Source: an uncultured Bacilli bacterium (GTDB lineage: Bacteria > Bacillota_I > Bacilli_A > RF39 > UBA660). From it: a stretch of 61,231 nt of DNA. The DNA is taken from the NCBI GenBank assembly GCA_934096715.1, contig CAKOMQ010000005.1:1-61231 (forward strand). Reading direction: 5' to 3'. Below the pieces are notes generated by a model that had not been told where the DNA came from, did no database searches, and saw only the letters and a program-made list of their open reading frames with translations. The position numbers and the translations under genes were made by a program. Positions 3,478 to 52,998 of this stretch are shown piece after piece (positions within the stretch are counted from its first letter, which is position 1; every line of letters begins with the position of its first letter).

Positions 3478-3632
3478 TGTAGCTGTATTGTTGAGCGCAT
3501 GGACCAGTAATGGTTGACGAGGATAGTAGTTGTCGAATTATCAGCGGATGCTACTACGGATAAGGTTTATTCGTTAAATATACTACAAAATGTAAAATCT
3601 AAGATTACAACAAAAAGTATATTAAGGAAAGG
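3478..3632 (+). promoter_or_regulatory. glmS ribozyme/riboswitch
   Basis: Lies directly upstream of glmS. Cleavage-site context TTG/AGCGC at 3494. Conserved core GACGAGG and CAGCGGATGC. Confidence 0.85.
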
Positions 3633-13592: not shown

Positions 13593-14405
13593 ATGCCAGA
13601 AATAGCTGAAGTAGAAACAGTTAGAAGAACGCTTCTAAAAAGAATTATTCATAAAAAGATAACTAGTATAGATATAATTTATCCTGGTATAATAGAAAAT
13701 GATCTTAACTATTTTAAAGAAAACCTTATTAATGATGAATTTATAGATATAAAAAGAATAGGTAAGTGGTTAATATTTGAAACTAATAATAAGTATTTAT
13801 TATCTCATTTAAGAATGGAAGGCAAATATTTTATTAAAGATAAAAATTTACCTATTGAAAAACATGAACATATTATATTCTATTTTGATGACTCAAGTAC
13901 ATTAAGATATCATGATACTAGAAAATTTGGTAAGATGCTTCTTATTAATAAAGAAGAACTATATACTACTAAAGAAATATCTAAGCAAGGCATTGAACCA
14001 TTATCAAATAAATTATCTTCTACTTATTTATTAGATAATTTTAAAAATAAAAAGATACCTATTAAAACTGTTTTACTTGATCAAACTATAATAAGTGGAT
14101 TAGGCAATATTTATGCTGATGAAGTGTTATTTTCATCTAATATTAATCCATTAAAAAAAGCTTGTGATATTACTAAAGATGAAGCAGATAGAATAATTGA
14201 TTCATCTAATTCAATAATATCAAAAGCAATTGAATGTGGTGGTACTACTATTAAAAGTTATACATCTAGCCTAGGAGTATATGGTAGTTATCAAGAGTAC
14301 TTGTGTGTTCATAGGAAAACTATTTGTCCTACATGCAATTCTAAAATAGAAAGAATTAAAGTGGGTGGAAGGAGTACTTACTTCTGTCCTAATTGTCAAA
14401 AATAA
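13593..14405 (+). CDS. mutM: Formamidopyrimidine-DNA glycosylase
   Basis: N-terminal MPEIAEVETVRR and a C-terminal CxxC...CxxC zinc finger. Confidence 0.95.
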   Translation: MPEIAEVETVRRTLLKRIIHKKITSIDIIYPGIIENDLNYFKENLINDEFIDIKRIGKWLIFETNNKYLLSHLRMEGKYFIKDKNLPIEKHEHIIFYFDDSSTLRYHDTRKFGKMLLINKEELYTTKEISKQGIEPLSNKLSSTYLLDNFKNKKIPIKTVLLDQTIISGLGNIYADEVLFSSNINPLKKACDITKDEADRIIDSSNSIISKAIECGGTTIKSYTSSLGVYGSYQEYLCVHRKTICPTCNSKIERIKVGGRSTYFCPNCQK

Positions 14406-14603
14406 AAGAATGTTCATTTATCCGGAACATTCTTTTAAATTGTCGATTGATTGTCGAAAAAAGGCGAACGTTTTTTCTTGACTTTTATTGATTACTGAAT
14501 TAGGATATATAACTAAGCGAGCAGGTGTTGTGGCTTGTATCACCAAACTATCAGGGGGTTTTGGAACTTCGGTTTTAATTCATTACTGGGAGGAGATGAT
14601 ACG

Positions 14604-14729
14604 ATGAAATTAAGGCTTAAATATAAGTTATTAAAAGTAGCCTTTTGGTTAGTCATTTTGTATATTCATCTTGGTCTAATCAAAAAAGCCATCGACTATG
14701 TCGATAGCTTATTCACAATAATGGTATAA
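14604..14729 (+). CDS. 41-aa hydrophobic peptide, candidate type I toxin (MKLRLKYKLLKVAFWLVILYIHLGLIKKAIDYVDSLFTIMV)
   Basis: Strong SD GGGAGGAG 8 nt upstream. Promoter TTGACT at 14478. One predicted TM helix. The paralog at 15102 differs by synonymous changes in the first 28 codons. Confidence 0.6.
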   Translation: MKLRLKYKLLKVAFWLVILYIHLGLIKKAIDYVDSLFTIMV

Positions 14730-14755
14730 GTGAAACACACCTGCTCGCTTTACCT
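14682..14755 (-). ncRNA. Candidate antisense sRNA (antitoxin-like), convergent with the peptide gene
   Basis: Minus-strand promoter TTGATA (14785-14790 on the plus-strand scale), 17-nt spacer, TATACT (14762-14767). Minus-strand terminator GCTATCGAC-ATA-GTCGATGGC plus TTTTTT (14682-14708). Confidence 0.55.
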
Positions 14756-15101
14756 AAATTAAGTATACACAATAAATTGTAAAATATCAATCATAAATTT
14801 GTATAGAAAGTCAATACATGAACAAGGAGCCAATTTTATAAGTATCAATGAGTTAAAAAAGTTGAAACTGTTAAAATTGGGAGATCCTAATTGCCAAAAA
14901 TAATAGAATGTTCATTTATCTGAAACATTCTTTTAAATTGTCGATTGATTGTCGAAAAAAGGCGAACGTTTTTTCTTGACTTTTCTTGATTACTGAATTA
15001 GGATATATAGCCAAGCGAGCAGGAGTTGTGGCTTGTATCACCAAACTATCAGGGGGTTTTGGAACTTCGGTTTTAATTCATTACTGGGAGGAGATGATAC
15101 G

Positions 15102-15209
15102 ATGAAATTAAGGCTTAAGTATAAGTTATTAAAAGTAGCCTTTTGGTTAGTCATTTTGTATATACATCTTGGTCTAATCAAAAAAGTCATCGACTTTTTT
15201 GGTCGATAA
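15102..15209 (+). CDS. 35-aa hydrophobic peptide, paralog of the 14604 ORF (MKLRLKYKLLKVAFWLVILYIHLGLIKKVIDFFGR)
   Basis: Same SD and spacing. Promoter TTGACT at 14976. The aaa>aag and att>ata changes are synonymous. The C-terminus diverges. Confidence 0.55.
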   Translation: MKLRLKYKLLKVAFWLVILYIHLGLIKKVIDFFGR

Positions 15210-15258
15210 CTTATAGCAAGTTATAGGTATAAGTGAAACACACTTGCTCGCTTTACCT
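15180..15258 (-). ncRNA. Candidate antisense sRNA, second copy
   Basis: Minus-strand TTGATA (15288-15293), 17-nt spacer, TATACT (15265-15270). The terminator stem is conserved, with a different loop (CAAAAAA) plus a T-run. Confidence 0.5.
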
Positions 15259-15372
15259 AAATTAAGTATACACAATATCTTGTAAAATATCAATCATAAA
15301 TTATTTGTCTAAAAAATGTAAATAAGGTTTAATTAAATACTAAAGGGTGTTATAATTTATATTGTGAGTGTT

Positions 15373-47893: not shown

Positions 47894-48265
47894 ATGGATT
47901 ATTTATATTATTTAATTTATTTTATAGGGGTATTTCTTATTATATTTCTATGTGACTATTTAATAATGAAGAAACCTTATTTAAACAAGAAAAAGAAGAA
48001 AAAAGATAATGAAGTATTTGAACTCACTTATATAGTTAGTAAATTTAAATTAGATAAGAGTAAACTAAATATTAAAAAGTGTTTAATAGAGTTTTCTTTA
48101 ATGAATGCCTTTATTATTAGCTTTACAGTAGTAGTACTCTATATACTAGATTTATTTATAATATGGCAATTCTTAATAGGATTTATCCTGTTAGTGGGTC
48201 TTATTTATTCAATATATGAAATTTATGGAAATATTTTAGTTAAGAAAGGATATATTAAAAAATGA
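47894..48265 (+). CDS. Small membrane protein, 123 aa, co-transcribed with leuS
   Basis: SD AAAGGAG. Hydrophobic segments flank a K-rich loop. The stop overlaps the leuS start (ATGA). Confidence 0.6.
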   Translation: MDYLYYLIYFIGVFLIIFLCDYLIMKKPYLNKKKKKKDNEVFELTYIVSKFKLDKSKLNIKKCLIEFSLMNAFIISFTVVVLYILDLFIIWQFLIGFILLVGLIYSIYEIYGNILVKKGYIKK

Positions 48266-51072
48266 ATTATAATGAGATAGAAAAAAAATGGCAAAGTATT
48301 TGGGATAAAGAAGAAAGTTTTAAAGCAGTTAATGGAAGTAGTAAAGAACCATACTATATTTTAGTAGAATTTCCTTATCCAAGTGGAGCAGGACTTCATG
48401 TAGGTCATGTACGTAGTTATACTGCTCAAGATGCGATAGCGAGAATGAAAAGAATGCAAGGCTACAACGTATTATTCCCAATGGGATGGGATGCTTTTGG
48501 AGCACCTGCTGAAGGATATGCAATAAAAAATCATATTCATCCTAAAGATGCTGTAAAAGAAAATATCCATACTTTTAAAGGACAAATGCAAAATTTAGGA
48601 TTTTCATTTGATTGGTCAAGAGAATTTTCAACAACTGATCCAGAATATTATAAATGGACACAATGGCAATTTTTAAAGTTCTTTGAACATGGTATGGCTT
48701 ATAAAGATAAAATACCTGTTAACTGGTGTCCTAATTGTAAAACAGTTCTTTCTAATGAAGATAGTGCTGGTGGTGTATGTGAAAGATGTGGTACTAGTGT
48801 AGTTCAAAAAGAAAAAAGTCAATGGATGCTAAGAATGAGTAATTATGCTGAAGACTTACTTAATGGACTTGAAGATACTCATTTTGCTAGTAAAGTAAAA
48901 CTAGGTCAAATTAACTGGATAGGTAAAAGTACTGGTGCAGAAGTGAATTTTAAAGTAGCTGATACTGATTATGAATTTACTGTTTATACTACTAGACCTG
49001 ATACATTATATGGAGTTACTTATTGTGTATTATCTCCAGAACATGAACTCGTGGATAAGATAACTAAACCTGAAAACTACGAAGAAGTATTTAAGTATAA
49101 AGAAGAATGTTCTCATAAGAATGAAATGGAAAGAACAGAACTTAATAAAGAAAAAACCGGTGTATTTACAGGAAGCTTTGCTATTAATCCAGTTAATAAT
49201 GAATTAATACCAATCTATATAAGTGATTATGTTTTAGTAAGTTATGGAACTGGTGCTATTATGGCTGTTCCAGCTCATGATGAAAGAGACTATGAATTTG
49301 CTAAAAAGTTTAATATTCCAATTAGGCAAGTTCTTGAAGAGATAACTGGCAAGAAAAATGATTCTGAAAGTAAGAAAAACTCAATAGTAGCGATTGTTTA
49401 TGATGAATTAGAAAATAAATATTTAACAATTAATTGGGGTAAACTTGGTGGTAGATTATTTGTTGGTGGAACTATTAAAGAAAATGAAACTCCTGTTGAA
49501 TGTGCTATTAGAGAAATAGCAGAGGAAACTGGCTATACTGATATTGAATTAGTAAGAGAATCATTTAAAATAAACCATCATTATTATGCTTATAATAAAG
49601 ATAAGTATTTTGATATAGAAGCAACACCTATATTATTTAAATTAAATAGTTACAAAAAAATTGAACAAAATCTTGATGAAGATGAGATATTTAAGATTGA
49701 ATGGGTGAGTAAAGATATTATTGAAAAAGAAATAATAGATGAATTACATAAAAAATCTTATTTATATACATTAAATGATACTGCTTTAGTAGGAGATGGT
49801 ATTCATATTAATTCTGGTATTTTAGATGGCCTTAATAAAGAAGATGGAATTAATAAGATGATCGAATACTTAACTACAAATAATATAGGTAAAAAGAAAA
49901 CTAATTATAAGATGCGTGATTGGATATTCTCAAGACAAAGATTCTGGGGAGAACCAATACCTATTGTAATATGTGATCATTGTGGTTATGTACCTCTTCC
50001 TGAAAGTGAATTACCATTAGTACTTCCTGATGTTGCTAATTATGAACCAACTGATAATGGAGAGAGTCCACTTGCTAATATAGAGTCTTGGGTTAATACT
50101 ACTTGTCCAAAGTGTGGTCGTCCTGCTAAAAGAGAAACAGATACAATGCCTAACTGGGCTGGATCTAGCTGGTATTTCTTAAGATTTATGGATGCTCATA
50201 ATGATAAAGAATTTGCTAGTATGGATGCTATGAAATATTGGCAAAAAGTTAACTGGTATAATGGTGGTATGGAACATACAGCAAGACACTTACTATATGC
50301 TAGATTTTGGGTACAATTTCTATATAATATAGGTCTTGTTCCTAATAAAGAAATGATTGATACAAGAGTTAGTCACGGTATGGTACTTGGTAGTGATAAT
50401 CAAAAAATGAGTAAAAGTAAAGGTAATGTAATTAATCCAGATGATATAGTTAGTGAGTTTGGAGCAGATACTCTAAGAGTATATGAAATGTTTATGGGTG
50501 ATTATGAACAAGATGCTCCATGGAGTACTGAATCCTTACGTGGATGTAAAAGATTTATTGACAGAGTAGTTAGACTTAAAGATAAAGTAGTTGAAGGAAC
50601 ATCTTATTCTTCTAACTTAGAAGTAATCATTAATAAATCTATTAAAAAGATTAGTTATGACTTACTAAATATGGGTTACAATACAGTAGTATCTCAATTA
50701 ATGATTATGTTAAATACTTATGAAGAACAAGACACTATTACTTCATCTGATTATAATGTATTCTTAAAACTATTAAATCCTATCGCTCCACATATAACTG
50801 AAGAGTTAAATGAACAAATAGGATATGAAAAAATATGTGATAGTACTTGGCCAGAGTATGATGAATCTAAAACTGTAGATAATAATCTTACTATTGGAGT
50901 ACAAGTAAATGGTAAGTTAAGAGCAGAAATTAATATTACTCTAAACGAAGATAAAGCTAGTATTTTAGCTAAAGCTAAAGAAGAAGAAAACATAAAAAAA
51001 TATCTTGAAGGACACACTATTATAAAAGAAATAGTAGTACCTAACAAGATAGTTAACATAGTTGTTAAATAG
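48262..51072 (+). CDS. leuS: Leucine--tRNA ligase with an inserted Nudix-fold domain
   Basis: HVGHVRSY (HIGH), KMSKSKGN, and the CP1 editing motif TTRPDTLYG. The extra segment at ~49339-49788 contains GTIKENETPVECAIREIAEETGY, which matches the Nudix box GX5EX7REUXEEXGU. Confidence 0.95.
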   Translation: MNYNEIEKKWQSIWDKEESFKAVNGSSKEPYYILVEFPYPSGAGLHVGHVRSYTAQDAIARMKRMQGYNVLFPMGWDAFGAPAEGYAIKNHIHPKDAVKENIHTFKGQMQNLGFSFDWSREFSTTDPEYYKWTQWQFLKFFEHGMAYKDKIPVNWCPNCKTVLSNEDSAGGVCERCGTSVVQKEKSQWMLRMSNYAEDLLNGLEDTHFASKVKLGQINWIGKSTGAEVNFKVADTDYEFTVYTTRPDTLYGVTYCVLSPEHELVDKITKPENYEEVFKYKEECSHKNEMERTELNKEKTGVFTGSFAINPVNNELIPIYISDYVLVSYGTGAIMAVPAHDERDYEFAKKFNIPIRQVLEEITGKKNDSESKKNSIVAIVYDELENKYLTINWGKLGGRLFVGGTIKENETPVECAIREIAEETGYTDIELVRESFKINHHYYAYNKDKYFDIEATPILFKLNSYKKIEQNLDEDEIFKIEWVSKDIIEKEIIDELHKKSYLYTLNDTALVGDGIHINSGILDGLNKEDGINKMIEYLTTNNIGKKKTNYKMRDWIFSRQRFWGEPIPIVICDHCGYVPLPESELPLVLPDVANYEPTDNGESPLANIESWVNTTCPKCGRPAKRETDTMPNWAGSSWYFLRFMDAHNDKEFASMDAMKYWQKVNWYNGGMEHTARHLLYARFWVQFLYNIGLVPNKEMIDTRVSHGMVLGSDNQKMSKSKGNVINPDDIVSEFGADTLRVYEMFMGDYEQDAPWSTESLRGCKRFIDRVVRLKDKVVEGTSYSSNLEVIINKSIKKISYDLLNMGYNTVVSQLMIMLNTYEEQDTITSSDYNVFLKLLNPIAPHITEELNEQIGYEKICDSTWPEYDESKTVDNNLTIGVQVNGKLRAEINITLNEDKASILAKAKEEENIKKYLEGHTIIKEIVVPNKIVNIVVK

Positions 51073-51121
51073 TTTTAACAGCTATTTTTTTATCTAAAAC
51101 ATTACGTACTTTGATGTAATT

Positions 51122-51197
51122 AAAAAAGCTGTCGAGTTAATTCTCGATAGCTTAACCAACATTTTGGCATAGGCGAAACATGCTTGCTCGTTTACCT
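51122..51197 (-). ncRNA. Orphan third copy of the antisense sRNA gene (no peptide ORF opposite)
   Basis: Minus-strand TTGATA (51227-51232), 17-nt spacer, TACACT (51204-51209). Terminator AAGCTATCGAG-loop-CTCGACAGCTT plus TTTTTT (51122-51152). The body is homologous to 14710-14755. Confidence 0.5.
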
Positions 51198-51304
51198 AAA
51201 TTAAGTGTACACAAAAATTTGTAAAATATCAACCATTTTATTGCAATTCATAATCAAATTTGGTATGATAAAATAGATAAATTAAATAAAAATATTTAAA
51301 AATT

Positions 51305-51451
51305 ATGAATTTTATGACCCGAAATTTTATACCGGTAAGTTATAAAATTCCCCTTCAGACGCTAAAAAGCCTACTGGGGGGGGGGGTTGAGAAAATGAGT
51401 CTGATGTGTGAATATAGGGAAGTAAAAATTTCTCTTTTTTATTTTTTATAA
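51305..51451 (+). CDS. 48-codon upstream ORF containing the G11 tract (MNFMTRNFIPVSYKIPLQTLKSLLGGGVEKMSLMCEYREVKISLFYFL)
   Basis: Not in the ORF track (under 60 aa). Shares ...LKSLLGGG-(G/V)EK with the B and C leaders. Ends 15 nt before ATG 51466. Confidence 0.4.
   Translation: MNFMTRNFIPVSYKIPLQTLKSLLGGGVEKMSLMCEYREVKISLFYFL
51376..51386 (+). repeat. G11 homopolymer tract in the leader of gene D
   Basis: Counted directly: ctactGGGGGGGGGGGttgag. Confidence 0.95.
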
Positions 51452-51465
51452 AAGGAAGTGAGAAA

Positions 51466-52998
51466 ATGAAAAAAATGGATAAGAAACAAAGAATATCTTT
51501 TATCATTGGGATATTTGCATTATTGATTTTTGTAATAGGAGCAACATATGCATACTTTAGTATTGGAACTAATAATACTACTACAGATTCAAGTGTTGTA
51601 GGTACAACAAACAAGTATGGTACAGCAAGTTTAACAACTAATACAAGCAAACTATATTTAAAATTTACGAGTGATGAAATGAGTGAAGACTATCAAGGTA
51701 CAACATATTACGCAAATTCTGATAGTGCTGGAACACCCCTTACAACTAATCCAAACTATGTGTTAGCAACCGCAAGTCTAGCAGATGGAGATTTACCACT
51801 TGATTGCGAGTATAATTATAAGGTAACTGCTACAGTAACAAAAGAAATTAATGATGGTAGTGACTCTGATGTAAAAATAACCATTGGAAGTACAACAAAA
51901 ACATTAAAAGAATTAACTGCTGCAGGTACTGATGGAATAGTAATAAATGGTAAACTAAAAAACTTAGTAACAGGAACAAATCAAACAATAAGTTTATCCA
52001 GTACAGTAACAAATACACCATCAAATCAAAATGGACTATCAGGTAATTCATATACAGTAACTATTTCTCCATATATAAGTGGTAATACAAAGTCATTTTC
52101 ATGTAAGTTGCATGAAAAAACACTTGCCGAAAAATTAATAGCAAGTGGAAACTTATGGGAAAGTGGACTAGAAGGCGATGGATATCGTTATATAGGAAGT
52201 GGTGCAGTAGGAACTAGTACTAATCCAAATAACTTTATATGCTTTGGTACAACAGATAAATCTGCTTGTACAGCAAATCAAGATAAATACATGTATAGAG
52301 TAATAGGAGTATTCTCAGATGCAAATGGAGATAATCATGTTAAGCTAATCAAATATAAACAACTAGTATCAGCAAAATGGAATACAAAAGATACAAATGT
52401 AAATTGGGAAGATAGTACATTATATGCAAGTCTAAATGGCACAGAATTCTTAACAAATACAACATATGATTATTTACAAGATACAACATGGAGTAATAAA
52501 ATAGAAAACTGGACATGGAGTGCCATAAATACAAAAACGTCTAATGGAGGTAATGGATCAAATTATTACAGCGTATTAACACCAAGTCAAATATATTTAC
52601 ATGAAATGAACAGAAGTACAAAAACAAGTACAGTAGGTGAATGGACAACACCAGCAGGAAAAATAGGATTAATGTATGCAAGTGATTATACATTATCATT
52701 GGGATCAAGTGCTTTAGCAATAACAGGAAGTACTAGTGCAAATCAAGACAAATTAAAAACAGGCTGGATGCATCAAAGTAATAATGATATTTCTAAATCA
52801 ACTACAGAATGGACGCTTTCTCGTCGTGGGTCTAATGCTGGTTACTTCGAAGCGTGGAGTGTCGCTAGTAGCGGCTTTGTCAGCGGCATTTTTGTGTACA
52901 CTGCGTATGGTACTCGACCAGTCTTCTATCTTACATCTAACGAATCGACTTCTAGTGGAGATGGAAGTTTAGAAAATCCATTTATCATTAGTGAATAA
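51466..52998 (+). CDS. Surface protein D of the family (one RPVFYLT-type domain) with a SipW-type-looking signal peptide
   Basis: SD AAAGGAAGTGAG. N-terminal TM segment ending IGATYAYFS. The C-terminal ~290 aa align with the B and C domains (LWESGLEGDGYRY, DKYMYRVIGVF, NKIENWTWSA, GKIGLMYASDY, RPVFYLTS). Confidence 0.85.
   Translation: MKKMDKKQRISFIIGIFALLIFVIGATYAYFSIGTNNTTTDSSVVGTTNKYGTASLTTNTSKLYLKFTSDEMSEDYQGTTYYANSDSAGTPLTTNPNYVLATASLADGDLPLDCEYNYKVTATVTKEINDGSDSDVKITIGSTTKTLKELTAAGTDGIVINGKLKNLVTGTNQTISLSSTVTNTPSNQNGLSGNSYTVTISPYISGNTKSFSCKLHEKTLAEKLIASGNLWESGLEGDGYRYIGSGAVGTSTNPNNFICFGTTDKSACTANQDKYMYRVIGVFSDANGDNHVKLIKYKQLVSAKWNTKDTNVNWEDSTLYASLNGTEFLTNTTYDYLQDTTWSNKIENWTWSAINTKTSNGGNGSNYYSVLTPSQIYLHEMNRSTKTSTVGEWTTPAGKIGLMYASDYTLSLGSSALAITGSTSANQDKLKTGWMHQSNNDISKSTTEWTLSRRGSNAGYFEAWSVASSGFVSGIFVYTAYGTRPVFYLTSNESTSSGDGSLENPFIISE

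Follow-up and report, generated by a model that had tools for sequence, protein, structure and literature searches.

A probable orphan type I toxin-antitoxin cassette of bsrG/SR4-like architecture on the chromosome of an uncultured gut member of the Bacilli

The stretch of DNA analyzed here (contig CAKOMQ010000005.1, 61,231 nucleotides (nt), referred to over its whole length as the window) belongs to an uncultured gut bacterium of the Bacilli, very rich in A+T, whose nearest named relatives are listed under "uncultured Bacilli/Tenericutes" or Candidatus Caccenecus, and its G+C content is 26.6%. Between the genes fpg and cca the window carries a small module that is probably a chromosomal orphan type I toxin-antitoxin cassette built like the bsrG/SR4 system, present as two tandem copies and accompanied by a third, antitoxin-only copy after leuS. 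A first-pass annotation had proposed a candidate type I locus, with a convergent antisense RNA overlapping the 3' end of the toxin mRNA, for the first of these copies; this is still the best explanation, and the evidence from natural alleles has strengthened it, but several details of the proposal had to be revised, and both the tandem duplicate and the toxin-less third gene for the small RNA (sRNA) had been missed. To our knowledge, no type I system has been characterized in this lineage of gut Bacilli.

The tandem pair consists of copy 1 at 14387-14884 and copy 2 from 14885 to about 15302, which are 96-97% identical to each other, and both units open with the final 19 nt of fpg followed by an AT-rich terminator. 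The plus-strand elements previously annotated for copy 1, namely a promoter, a Shine-Dalgarno (SD) sequence, the ATG at 14604 and an open reading frame (ORF) of 41 codons, are all found in place, as are the minus-strand promoter and, downstream of it, a hairpin followed by six T. The features of the two copies are the following:

14403-14437, plus strand, recurring at 14901-14935: AT-rich terminator hairpin 3' of fpg, the first element of the repeated unit
14478-14506, plus strand: toxin promoter of copy 1, TTGACT-17-TAGGAT, with a predicted transcription start at about 14512-14515
14515-14528, plus strand: 5' arm of the long-distance helix of copy 1, AAGCGAGCAGGTGT, at the extreme 5' end of the predicted mRNA
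14535-14604, plus strand: structured leader of copy 1, with an 8-bp stem (14535-42 with 14597-14604) over the SD-to-AUG spacer and a UUCG hairpin at 14561-14578
14588-14595, plus strand: SD sequence GGGAGGAG, 8 nt 5' of the ATG
14604-14729, plus strand: candidate toxin ORF of copy 1, 41 amino acids (aa), MKLRLKYKLLKVAFWLVILYIHLGLIKKAIDYVDSLFTIMV, with its ATG at 14604
14737-14750, plus strand: 3' arm of copy 1, in the 3' untranslated region (UTR) and within the antisense RNA overlap, a perfect complement of 14515-14528
14680-14755, minus strand: predicted antisense sRNA of copy 1, about 75 nt, with a hairpin at the 5' end, then a single-stranded linker, then the terminator
14790-14762, minus strand: sRNA promoter of copy 1, TTGATA-17-TATACT
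14710-14686, minus strand: stem of the sRNA terminator of copy 1, an 11-bp hairpin, followed by U6
14976-15004, plus strand: toxin promoter of copy 2
15013-15026, plus strand: 5' arm of copy 2, AAGCGAGCAGGAGT
15102-15209, plus strand: candidate toxin ORF of copy 2, 35 aa, MKLRLKYKLLKVAFWLVILYIHLGLIKKVIDFFGR, identical to copy 1 in residues 1-28 and different in the tail
15240-15253, plus strand: 3' arm of copy 2, ACACTTGCTCGCTT
15178-15258, minus strand: predicted antisense sRNA of copy 2, about 81 nt, with its terminator stem at 15212-15184 and U6
15265-15293, minus strand: sRNA promoter of copy 2, TTGATA-17-TATACT

A type I system is expected to comprise a small (<60 aa) hydrophobic peptide ORF with its own ribosome-binding site, which in this module is 35-41 aa long, and an sRNA gene with a promoter and a terminator whose product is complementary to the toxin mRNA, which at the level of sequence is found here as well. 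The peptide joins a cationic N-terminus (MKLRLKYKLLK) to a 15-residue hydrophobic core (residues 12-26) followed by KK, has a net charge of +5 to +7 (+5 in copy 1), and is modeled as one continuous helix spanning residues 3-40 with a predicted local distance difference test (pLDDT) score of 87; it is predicted to be a membrane-active single helix. The tail of the copy 2 peptide differs because the loop of the antisense terminator, which shares nucleotides with the end of the ORF, is 4 nt longer in that copy.

The arms at the extreme 5' end and in the 3' UTR of the predicted mRNA form a G+C-rich 14-nt inverted repeat that is far beyond chance: its motif occurs four times in the window versus 0.06 expected, and in 100 Markov-simulated windows no perfect inverted repeat of 14 nt turned up that had 8 or more G/C and arms 50-400 nt apart. 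The perfect complementarity of 14515-14528 to 14737-14750, to which the earlier annotation had drawn attention, is indeed present in the window sequence, and the predicted 248-nt mRNA, which folds at -73.8 kcal/mol (z = -5.4), contains the 5'/3' helix within its minimum-free-energy structure. Among the 13 distinct unit alleles that same-species contigs of several human gut studies yielded, the perfect Watson-Crick 14-mer occurs in two only, and ten have a G.U pair at position 10; the alleles agree at 11 of the 14 pairs, two further pairs vary solely toward G.U or U.G, and RNAalifold recovers the helix independently.

These changes bear on a very different reading of the module, whereby it would be a mobile or repeat element resembling a miniature inverted-repeat transposable element (MITE) with 14-bp terminal inverted repeats, or else a chance combination of motifs in AT-rich DNA. 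The inverted repeats do flank a segment of about 236 bp, the region is inserted and has several copies, and promoter-like hexamers are common by chance; yet the repeat is imperfect as DNA in 10 of the 13 alleles and nonetheless pairs as RNA, the C-to-U and A-to-G substitutions of its 3' arm staying paired, as G.U, in the plus-strand RNA only. Furthermore, no target-site duplication was found at the arms, the motif has no occurrence elsewhere in the 61 kb, the third copy possesses one arm only and is bounded by the sRNA transcription unit and not by repeats, and the compensatory changes in the antisense terminator and the invariant promoter hexamers described below argue for function. The MITE reading was rejected, and we regard this whole alternative, chance included, as highly improbable.

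On the minus strand, the sRNA promoter is invariant at 12 of 12 hexamer positions in the 13 alleles, with variation at 6 of the 17 spacer positions; the toxin promoter likewise keeps both hexamers in every allele and varies at two spacer positions, and the sRNA promoter is somewhat the better of the two. The 76-nt antisense RNA folds with a z-score of -3.75, and its terminator, which sits within the last codons of the ORF, belongs to a class of sites that is commoner in the window than chance would have it (three terminator-like sites found versus 0.4 expected, two of the three being the antisense terminators). The terminator stem is kept while its loop measures 3, 6 or 7 nt, 97.8% of the minus-strand stem cells being paired, and it includes a compensatory pair that is C-G in eight alleles and U-A in five. 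In every allele, one stem position forms a U.G pair in the minus-strand RNA where the plus-strand RNA would have C.A. The minus-strand hairpin is also the more stable of the two (-14.6 versus -10.8 kcal/mol in copy 1, -13.0 versus -11.6 kcal/mol in copy 2), and it alone has a U tract beside it.

Much as had been annotated, the sRNA is complementary in full to the end of the ORF, comprising its last 15 codons, and to the 3' UTR, the helix's 3' arm included, and the predicted duplex with the mRNA extends over about 74 bp at -137 kcal/mol. The likeness between the 5' ends of the sRNA and the mRNA, which would set the two in competition, is also present, but it follows automatically from the sRNA being complementary to the helix's 3' arm and is no independent observation. 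Outside the overlap, the sRNA forms no better duplex with the mRNA than a shuffled sRNA does; a second interaction site like that of the par system was rejected on this ground, and the lack of a second target site in the mRNA excludes par-like control via direct repeats.

The third copy came to light in a search with a covariance model of the sRNA (46.4 bits, E 8e-8), a kind of search that the first-pass annotation had suggested for related genomes; in 80 fpg loci of related species and in the nearest sister, neither the covariance model nor nhmmer nor tblastn found a relative. Its features are two:

51120-51197, minus strand: sRNA gene of copy 3 without a toxin part, just 3' of leuS and convergent with it
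51204-51232, minus strand: sRNA promoter of copy 3, TTGATA-17-TACACT

A hidden Markov model of the unit (nhmmer) matches copy 3 at unit positions 192-316 only (51109-51235, E 6.5e-21), and within this segment there is no plus-strand toxin promoter, leader, SD or ATG. Copy 3 retains the 5' segment AGGUAAA-CGAGCAAG as well as a terminator that ends in U6; the top pair of the terminator stem shows a second compensatory change, from C-G to G-C. This copy is conserved in two other strains. A stand-alone sRNA gene with a promoter and a terminator, conserved across strains, is what one would look for if a family of minus-strand sRNAs acting in trans were the functional unit and the plus-strand ORF and mRNA were incidental or decaying, and the sRNA is moreover the best-conserved block among the three copies. 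We nevertheless consider this account quite improbable. The homology of copy 3 starts at about toxin codon 22 and continues as a relic reading frame to the same stop position, which argues that it derived from a full module; no trans target site was found in the non-overlapped mRNA; and the wobble changes in the long-distance helix fit a plus-strand RNA only. The plus-strand leader, SD and ATG are conserved too: the leader stems are either invariant among the alleles or show U-A to U.G changes only, and one allele exchanges GGGAGGAG for another good SD, GAAAGGAG.

In codons 1-29 of the ORF, in addition, synonymous changes are in excess (7, next to 6 non-synonymous ones; pN/pS 0.22; binomial p = 0.008), and the five replacements recorded (L5V, K8R, A13V, V17A and A29V) are all conservative, a pattern that suggests weak purifying selection on the ORF. 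Three of these replacements (L5V, K8R and V17A), together with synonymous changes, make up a cluster of seven substitutions within 39 nt of the ORF in the L104 allele (L104:210-535; window 14615-14653), which otherwise matches the other alleles; the cluster resembles a tract converted from an unseen paralogue.

Where parts of the module have been lost, it is the toxin side that is affected. A 1-nt deletion in codon 3/4, found in two alleles from three independent assemblies, truncates the ORF to nine codons (MKLGLSISY, then a stop):

L106:1224-1543, L111:998-1317 and L110:723-1042: frameshifted alleles in which the module is otherwise intact, sRNA promoter included

Promoter and terminator are intact in each of the 14 sRNA genes, and the toxin is frameshifted in two alleles and deleted in copy 3; such a loss restricted to the toxin side is exactly the asymmetry predicted by a toxin-antitoxin pair. 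The frameshifted alleles can be called upon, however, by those who would see in the same architecture an ordinary gene for a non-toxic small membrane protein tuned by a cis-antisense RNA: their natural persistence implies that the peptide is dispensable and that its loss is tolerated, the ORF, SD and antisense features fit equally well, the hydrophobic core is only 15 residues long, and the peptide has no similarity to known toxin families. We hold this account to be unlikely, albeit one to be taken seriously, as lineage-specific insertion, tandem duplication, an sRNA-only copy and loss on the toxin side alone are the habits of selfish type I elements rather than of small housekeeping proteins, and the bsrG/SR4 toxin is likewise laid out with a clamped mRNA and an antisense RNA at its 3' end.

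The genomic setting adds to the case for a cassette. In 23 related species fpg and cca are directly adjacent (with a 13-nt gap in L010), an arrangement that marks the segment of about 0.5-1 kb between them as an insertion, specific to the source species, among housekeeping genes; in the nearest sister, whose fpg is 76% identical, a different gene lies 64 nt past fpg. No gene is called at the position of the cassette in any assembly examined, which shows how small cassettes of such a type escape gene callers. The duplication of fpg is limited to its last 19 nt. Copies 1 and 2 are separated by an 85-nt spacer (14800-14884) with an AT-rich hairpin (14830-48 with 14862-80) and without detectable relation to fpg or to the copy 2 tail; that the spacer might be a decayed fpg 3' end was considered and rejected, its match being no better than those of shuffles. 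A direct repeat, TTGTCGA-N4-TTGTCGA, stands at 14440-14457 and again at 14938-14955, in the gap that separates the upstream terminator from the -35 hexamer of the toxin promoter in each copy; it is followed by an A6...T6 tract and could be an operator or an UP-like element.

If the module is a type I cassette, its plus strand would give rise to an mRNA of at least 250 nt whose extreme 5' end is paired with the 3' UTR, in a helix that would enclose the 91-nt leader, the strong SD and the 35-41-codon ORF for the cationic peptide, and its minus strand would give rise to an sRNA of about 75 nt ending at the intrinsic terminator inside the last codons of the ORF. Pairing of the two RNAs would start in unstructured linker and loop regions and spread to the full duplex, a likely RNase III substrate; the sRNA would thereby displace the mRNA 5' end from the 5'/3' helix, whereupon the mRNA would decay or refold and no toxin would be made. 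A drop in sRNA supply would, conversely, leave a clamped and more stable mRNA to be translated, and the peptide could then damage the membrane. From the arrangement of the DNA we infer transcription, toxicity, the involvement of an RNase and the effect of 5'-end displacement alike. As this mechanism is the one expected from bsrG/SR4, the gain is one of breadth and not of a new principle.

The counterpart whose logic has been documented is bsrG/SR4 from the SPbeta prophage of Bacillus subtilis, in which nt 1-35 of the bsrG mRNA pair with nt 232-262 to form helix P1, and binding of SR4 to the 3' arm renders nt 1-33 single-stranded, the mRNA being degraded by RNase III (PMC3834814). Our module shares with it a small hydrophobic candidate toxin, a convergent antisense RNA over the mRNA 3' end, a predicted mRNA 5'/3' helix (14515-28 with 14737-50) whose 3' arm lies inside the antisense overlap, and an antitoxin promoter stronger than the toxin promoter. 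An sRNA that competes with the mRNA 5' end, as had been emphasized in the first-pass annotation, is therefore part of an already known layout. The two systems differ in that the sRNA is here about 75 nt long, as opposed to 180 nt for SR4, and has its terminator inside the ORF, in that no toxin-mRNA terminator lies directly 3' of the helix and no clear SR4-like tightening of an SD helix is predicted, and in that the module resides among core genes whereas bsrG resides in a prophage. The peptide gave no match that would place it in the BsrG/TxpA family in Pfam-A or NCBIfam at E up to 10, although the presence of a BsrG model in these libraries was not checked. In txpA/RatA of B. subtilis the genes are convergent, overlap by about 75 nt at their 3' ends and are governed by duplex-dependent degradation; the module resembles this pair in its convergent, 3'-overlapping antitoxin, and departs from it in that the Rfam RatA model does not match and in that the peptide is unrelated, its charge layout being different, with a cationic N-terminus ahead of the membrane helix.

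The likeness to bsrG/SR4 and txpA/RatA that had been annotated thus stands, but the one to fst/RNAII does not. In the par system of pAD1 (fst/RNA II) a helix comparable to ours, the 5'-UH, sequesters the extreme 5' end of the toxin mRNA and stabilizes this RNA, and Fst is marked by a PXXXG(C) motif and a charged C-terminal tail (PMC7472228); by analogy with that stabilization, unclamping of the mRNA in our module could speed its decay. Convergent promoters, a helix sequestering the mRNA 5' end and a hairpin common to both genes are shared with par and the Fst/Ldr type. The common hairpin is, however, no bidirectional terminator, since it lies inside the ORF with a C.A mismatch and no U tract on the plus strand; there is no second complementarity, of the DRa/DRb type, to the translation start; and the peptide has neither the PXXXG motif nor any proline and does not match the Fst family of Pfam.

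The comparison to hok-type fold-back holds for the long-distance helix and for little else. Pairing of the two mRNA ends over a long distance forms part of toxin control in hok, where it involves the fold-back inhibition element (fbi), and in AapA1/IsoA1 of Helicobacter pylori. The module shares only this idea with them: in both systems the 5' leader is what the antisense RNA binds (in hok/sok the leader or the mok start), and activation requires processing at the 3' end, whereas here the antisense RNA targets the 3' end and covers the 3' arm, the predicted helix, unlike that of hok, does not govern the ribosome-binding site, and the peptide does not match HOK_GEF. The module would appear, then, to be built like bsrG/SR4 and txpA/RatA without being a sequence member of those systems, of Fst/par or of Hok.

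The first-pass remark that neither the peptide nor the RNA could be recognized was borne out by protein, family, Rfam and DNA searches. No homologue of the peptide was found by protein word-index search or in back-translated scans of genome, metagenome and viral contigs, and none that is credible by HMMER over 1.84 billion representatives, where three long repetitive proteins were judged spurious. No toxin family matched in Pfam-A or NCBIfam at E up to 10; sub-threshold hits to DUF7554 (15.7-16.6 bits, cutoff 25), to PSM-epsilon and to a PHROG holin were set aside, a hydrophobic helix being enough to give such low scores. PADLOC returned no match for the cassette, the Rfam covariance models gave spurious sub-threshold matches at E up to 10 and none for the module at the gathering score, and neither blastn of the module DNA against plasmids and phages nor exact-pattern scans of viral and metagenome contigs revealed relatives.

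Besides the dispensability of the peptide, a number of observations weigh against the interpretation of the module as a toxin-antitoxin system or against parts of it. The absence of a homologue of peptide or RNA from every collection searched means that all comparative evidence comes from one species, at about 95% identity. The single copies on contigs L005, L104, L106, L109 and L111 could be assembly collapses of the 500-bp repeat. Promoter-like hexamers occur in the window at chance frequency (20 found versus 16.4 expected in shuffles), so that both promoters rest on their conservation and not on the match itself, and the toxin -10 hexamer, TAGGAT, is weak. An A.A mismatch is present at helix position 12 in three alleles, and no double compensatory change occurs in the 5'/3' helix among the 13 alleles, which leaves the allele evidence consistent with the helix but weak. 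At the protein level, the test for selection on the ORF gave p = 0.10 in a simulation preserving the mutation spectrum, and the C-terminal tail is unconstrained, with three types (AIDYVDSLFTIMV, VIDFFGR and VIDYFVDNL) that arise from indels in the loop of the antisense terminator; compared with copy 3, the tail shows about 11 non-synonymous and 3 synonymous changes (hand count), and conservation of the tail as protein was dropped from consideration as near neutral.

Two further objections concern the mRNA. No plus-strand terminator follows the 3' arm of copy 1, where the first terminator-like site is the repeat of the fpg terminator near 14931, and nothing terminator-like lies between copy 2 and cca, or before cca in the single-copy strains; the annotated claim that the helix closes the whole mRNA is unproven for this reason, and read-through from the plus strand into cca is possible. 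In constrained folding, moreover, the accessibility of the SD and AUG is hardly altered by opening of the helix or binding of the sRNA: when examined for an SR4-like tightening of the SD-sequestering helix, sRNA binding lowers the SD unpaired probabilities slightly, and the 8-bp leader stem over the SD-to-AUG spacer is predicted in both states. A role of the 5'/3' helix as a gate of the ribosome-binding site is unsupported by these predictions.

A more far-reaching combination of these elements, which we put forward as a speculation and think rather unlikely as a whole, is that all three sRNA genes belong to one small network of antitoxins serving an orphan toxin family, with the leuS-linked copy as a back-up antitoxin in trans, that the antitoxin acts mainly by mimicking the mRNA 5' end, unlocking a protective 5'/3' clamp rather than blocking the ribosome-binding site, and that read-through of the terminator-less mRNA could couple the module to the expression of cca. 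The copy 3 sRNA is predicted to pair with the 3' regions of the toxin mRNAs at -62 to -67 kcal/mol, as compared to -22 kcal/mol for a shuffled sRNA, and for its 5' 20 nt a pairing energy of -19 to -23 kcal/mol with the 3' arm is predicted, next to -21 to -28 kcal/mol for the 5' arm of the mRNA itself.

Should the interpretation as a type I cassette be correct, an orphan toxin family, together with its antitoxin RNA, would be added from a branch of the gut Bacilli that is uncultured and very rich in A+T. The species also offers a natural allelic series, with frameshifted toxins, three tail types and an antitoxin-only copy, that illustrates the co-evolution of an RNA hairpin and a peptide tail encoded by the same nucleotides.

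Other features of the window were noted in passing. The leucyl-tRNA synthetase LeuRS (48262-51072) has an inserted NUDIX domain at aa 399-490 (PF00293, 45.3 bits, cutoff 21.1) directly after the CP1 editing domain, a fusion for which a full-text search of a paper library found no description. A poly-G tract at about 51367-51377, in the leader of a gene for 510 aa (51466-52998), is two G shorter in strain L115 and may be phase-variable. A glmS ribozyme at 3483-3632 (67.3 bits) and a 5'-truncated tRNA at 1-71 both reach the Rfam gathering threshold.

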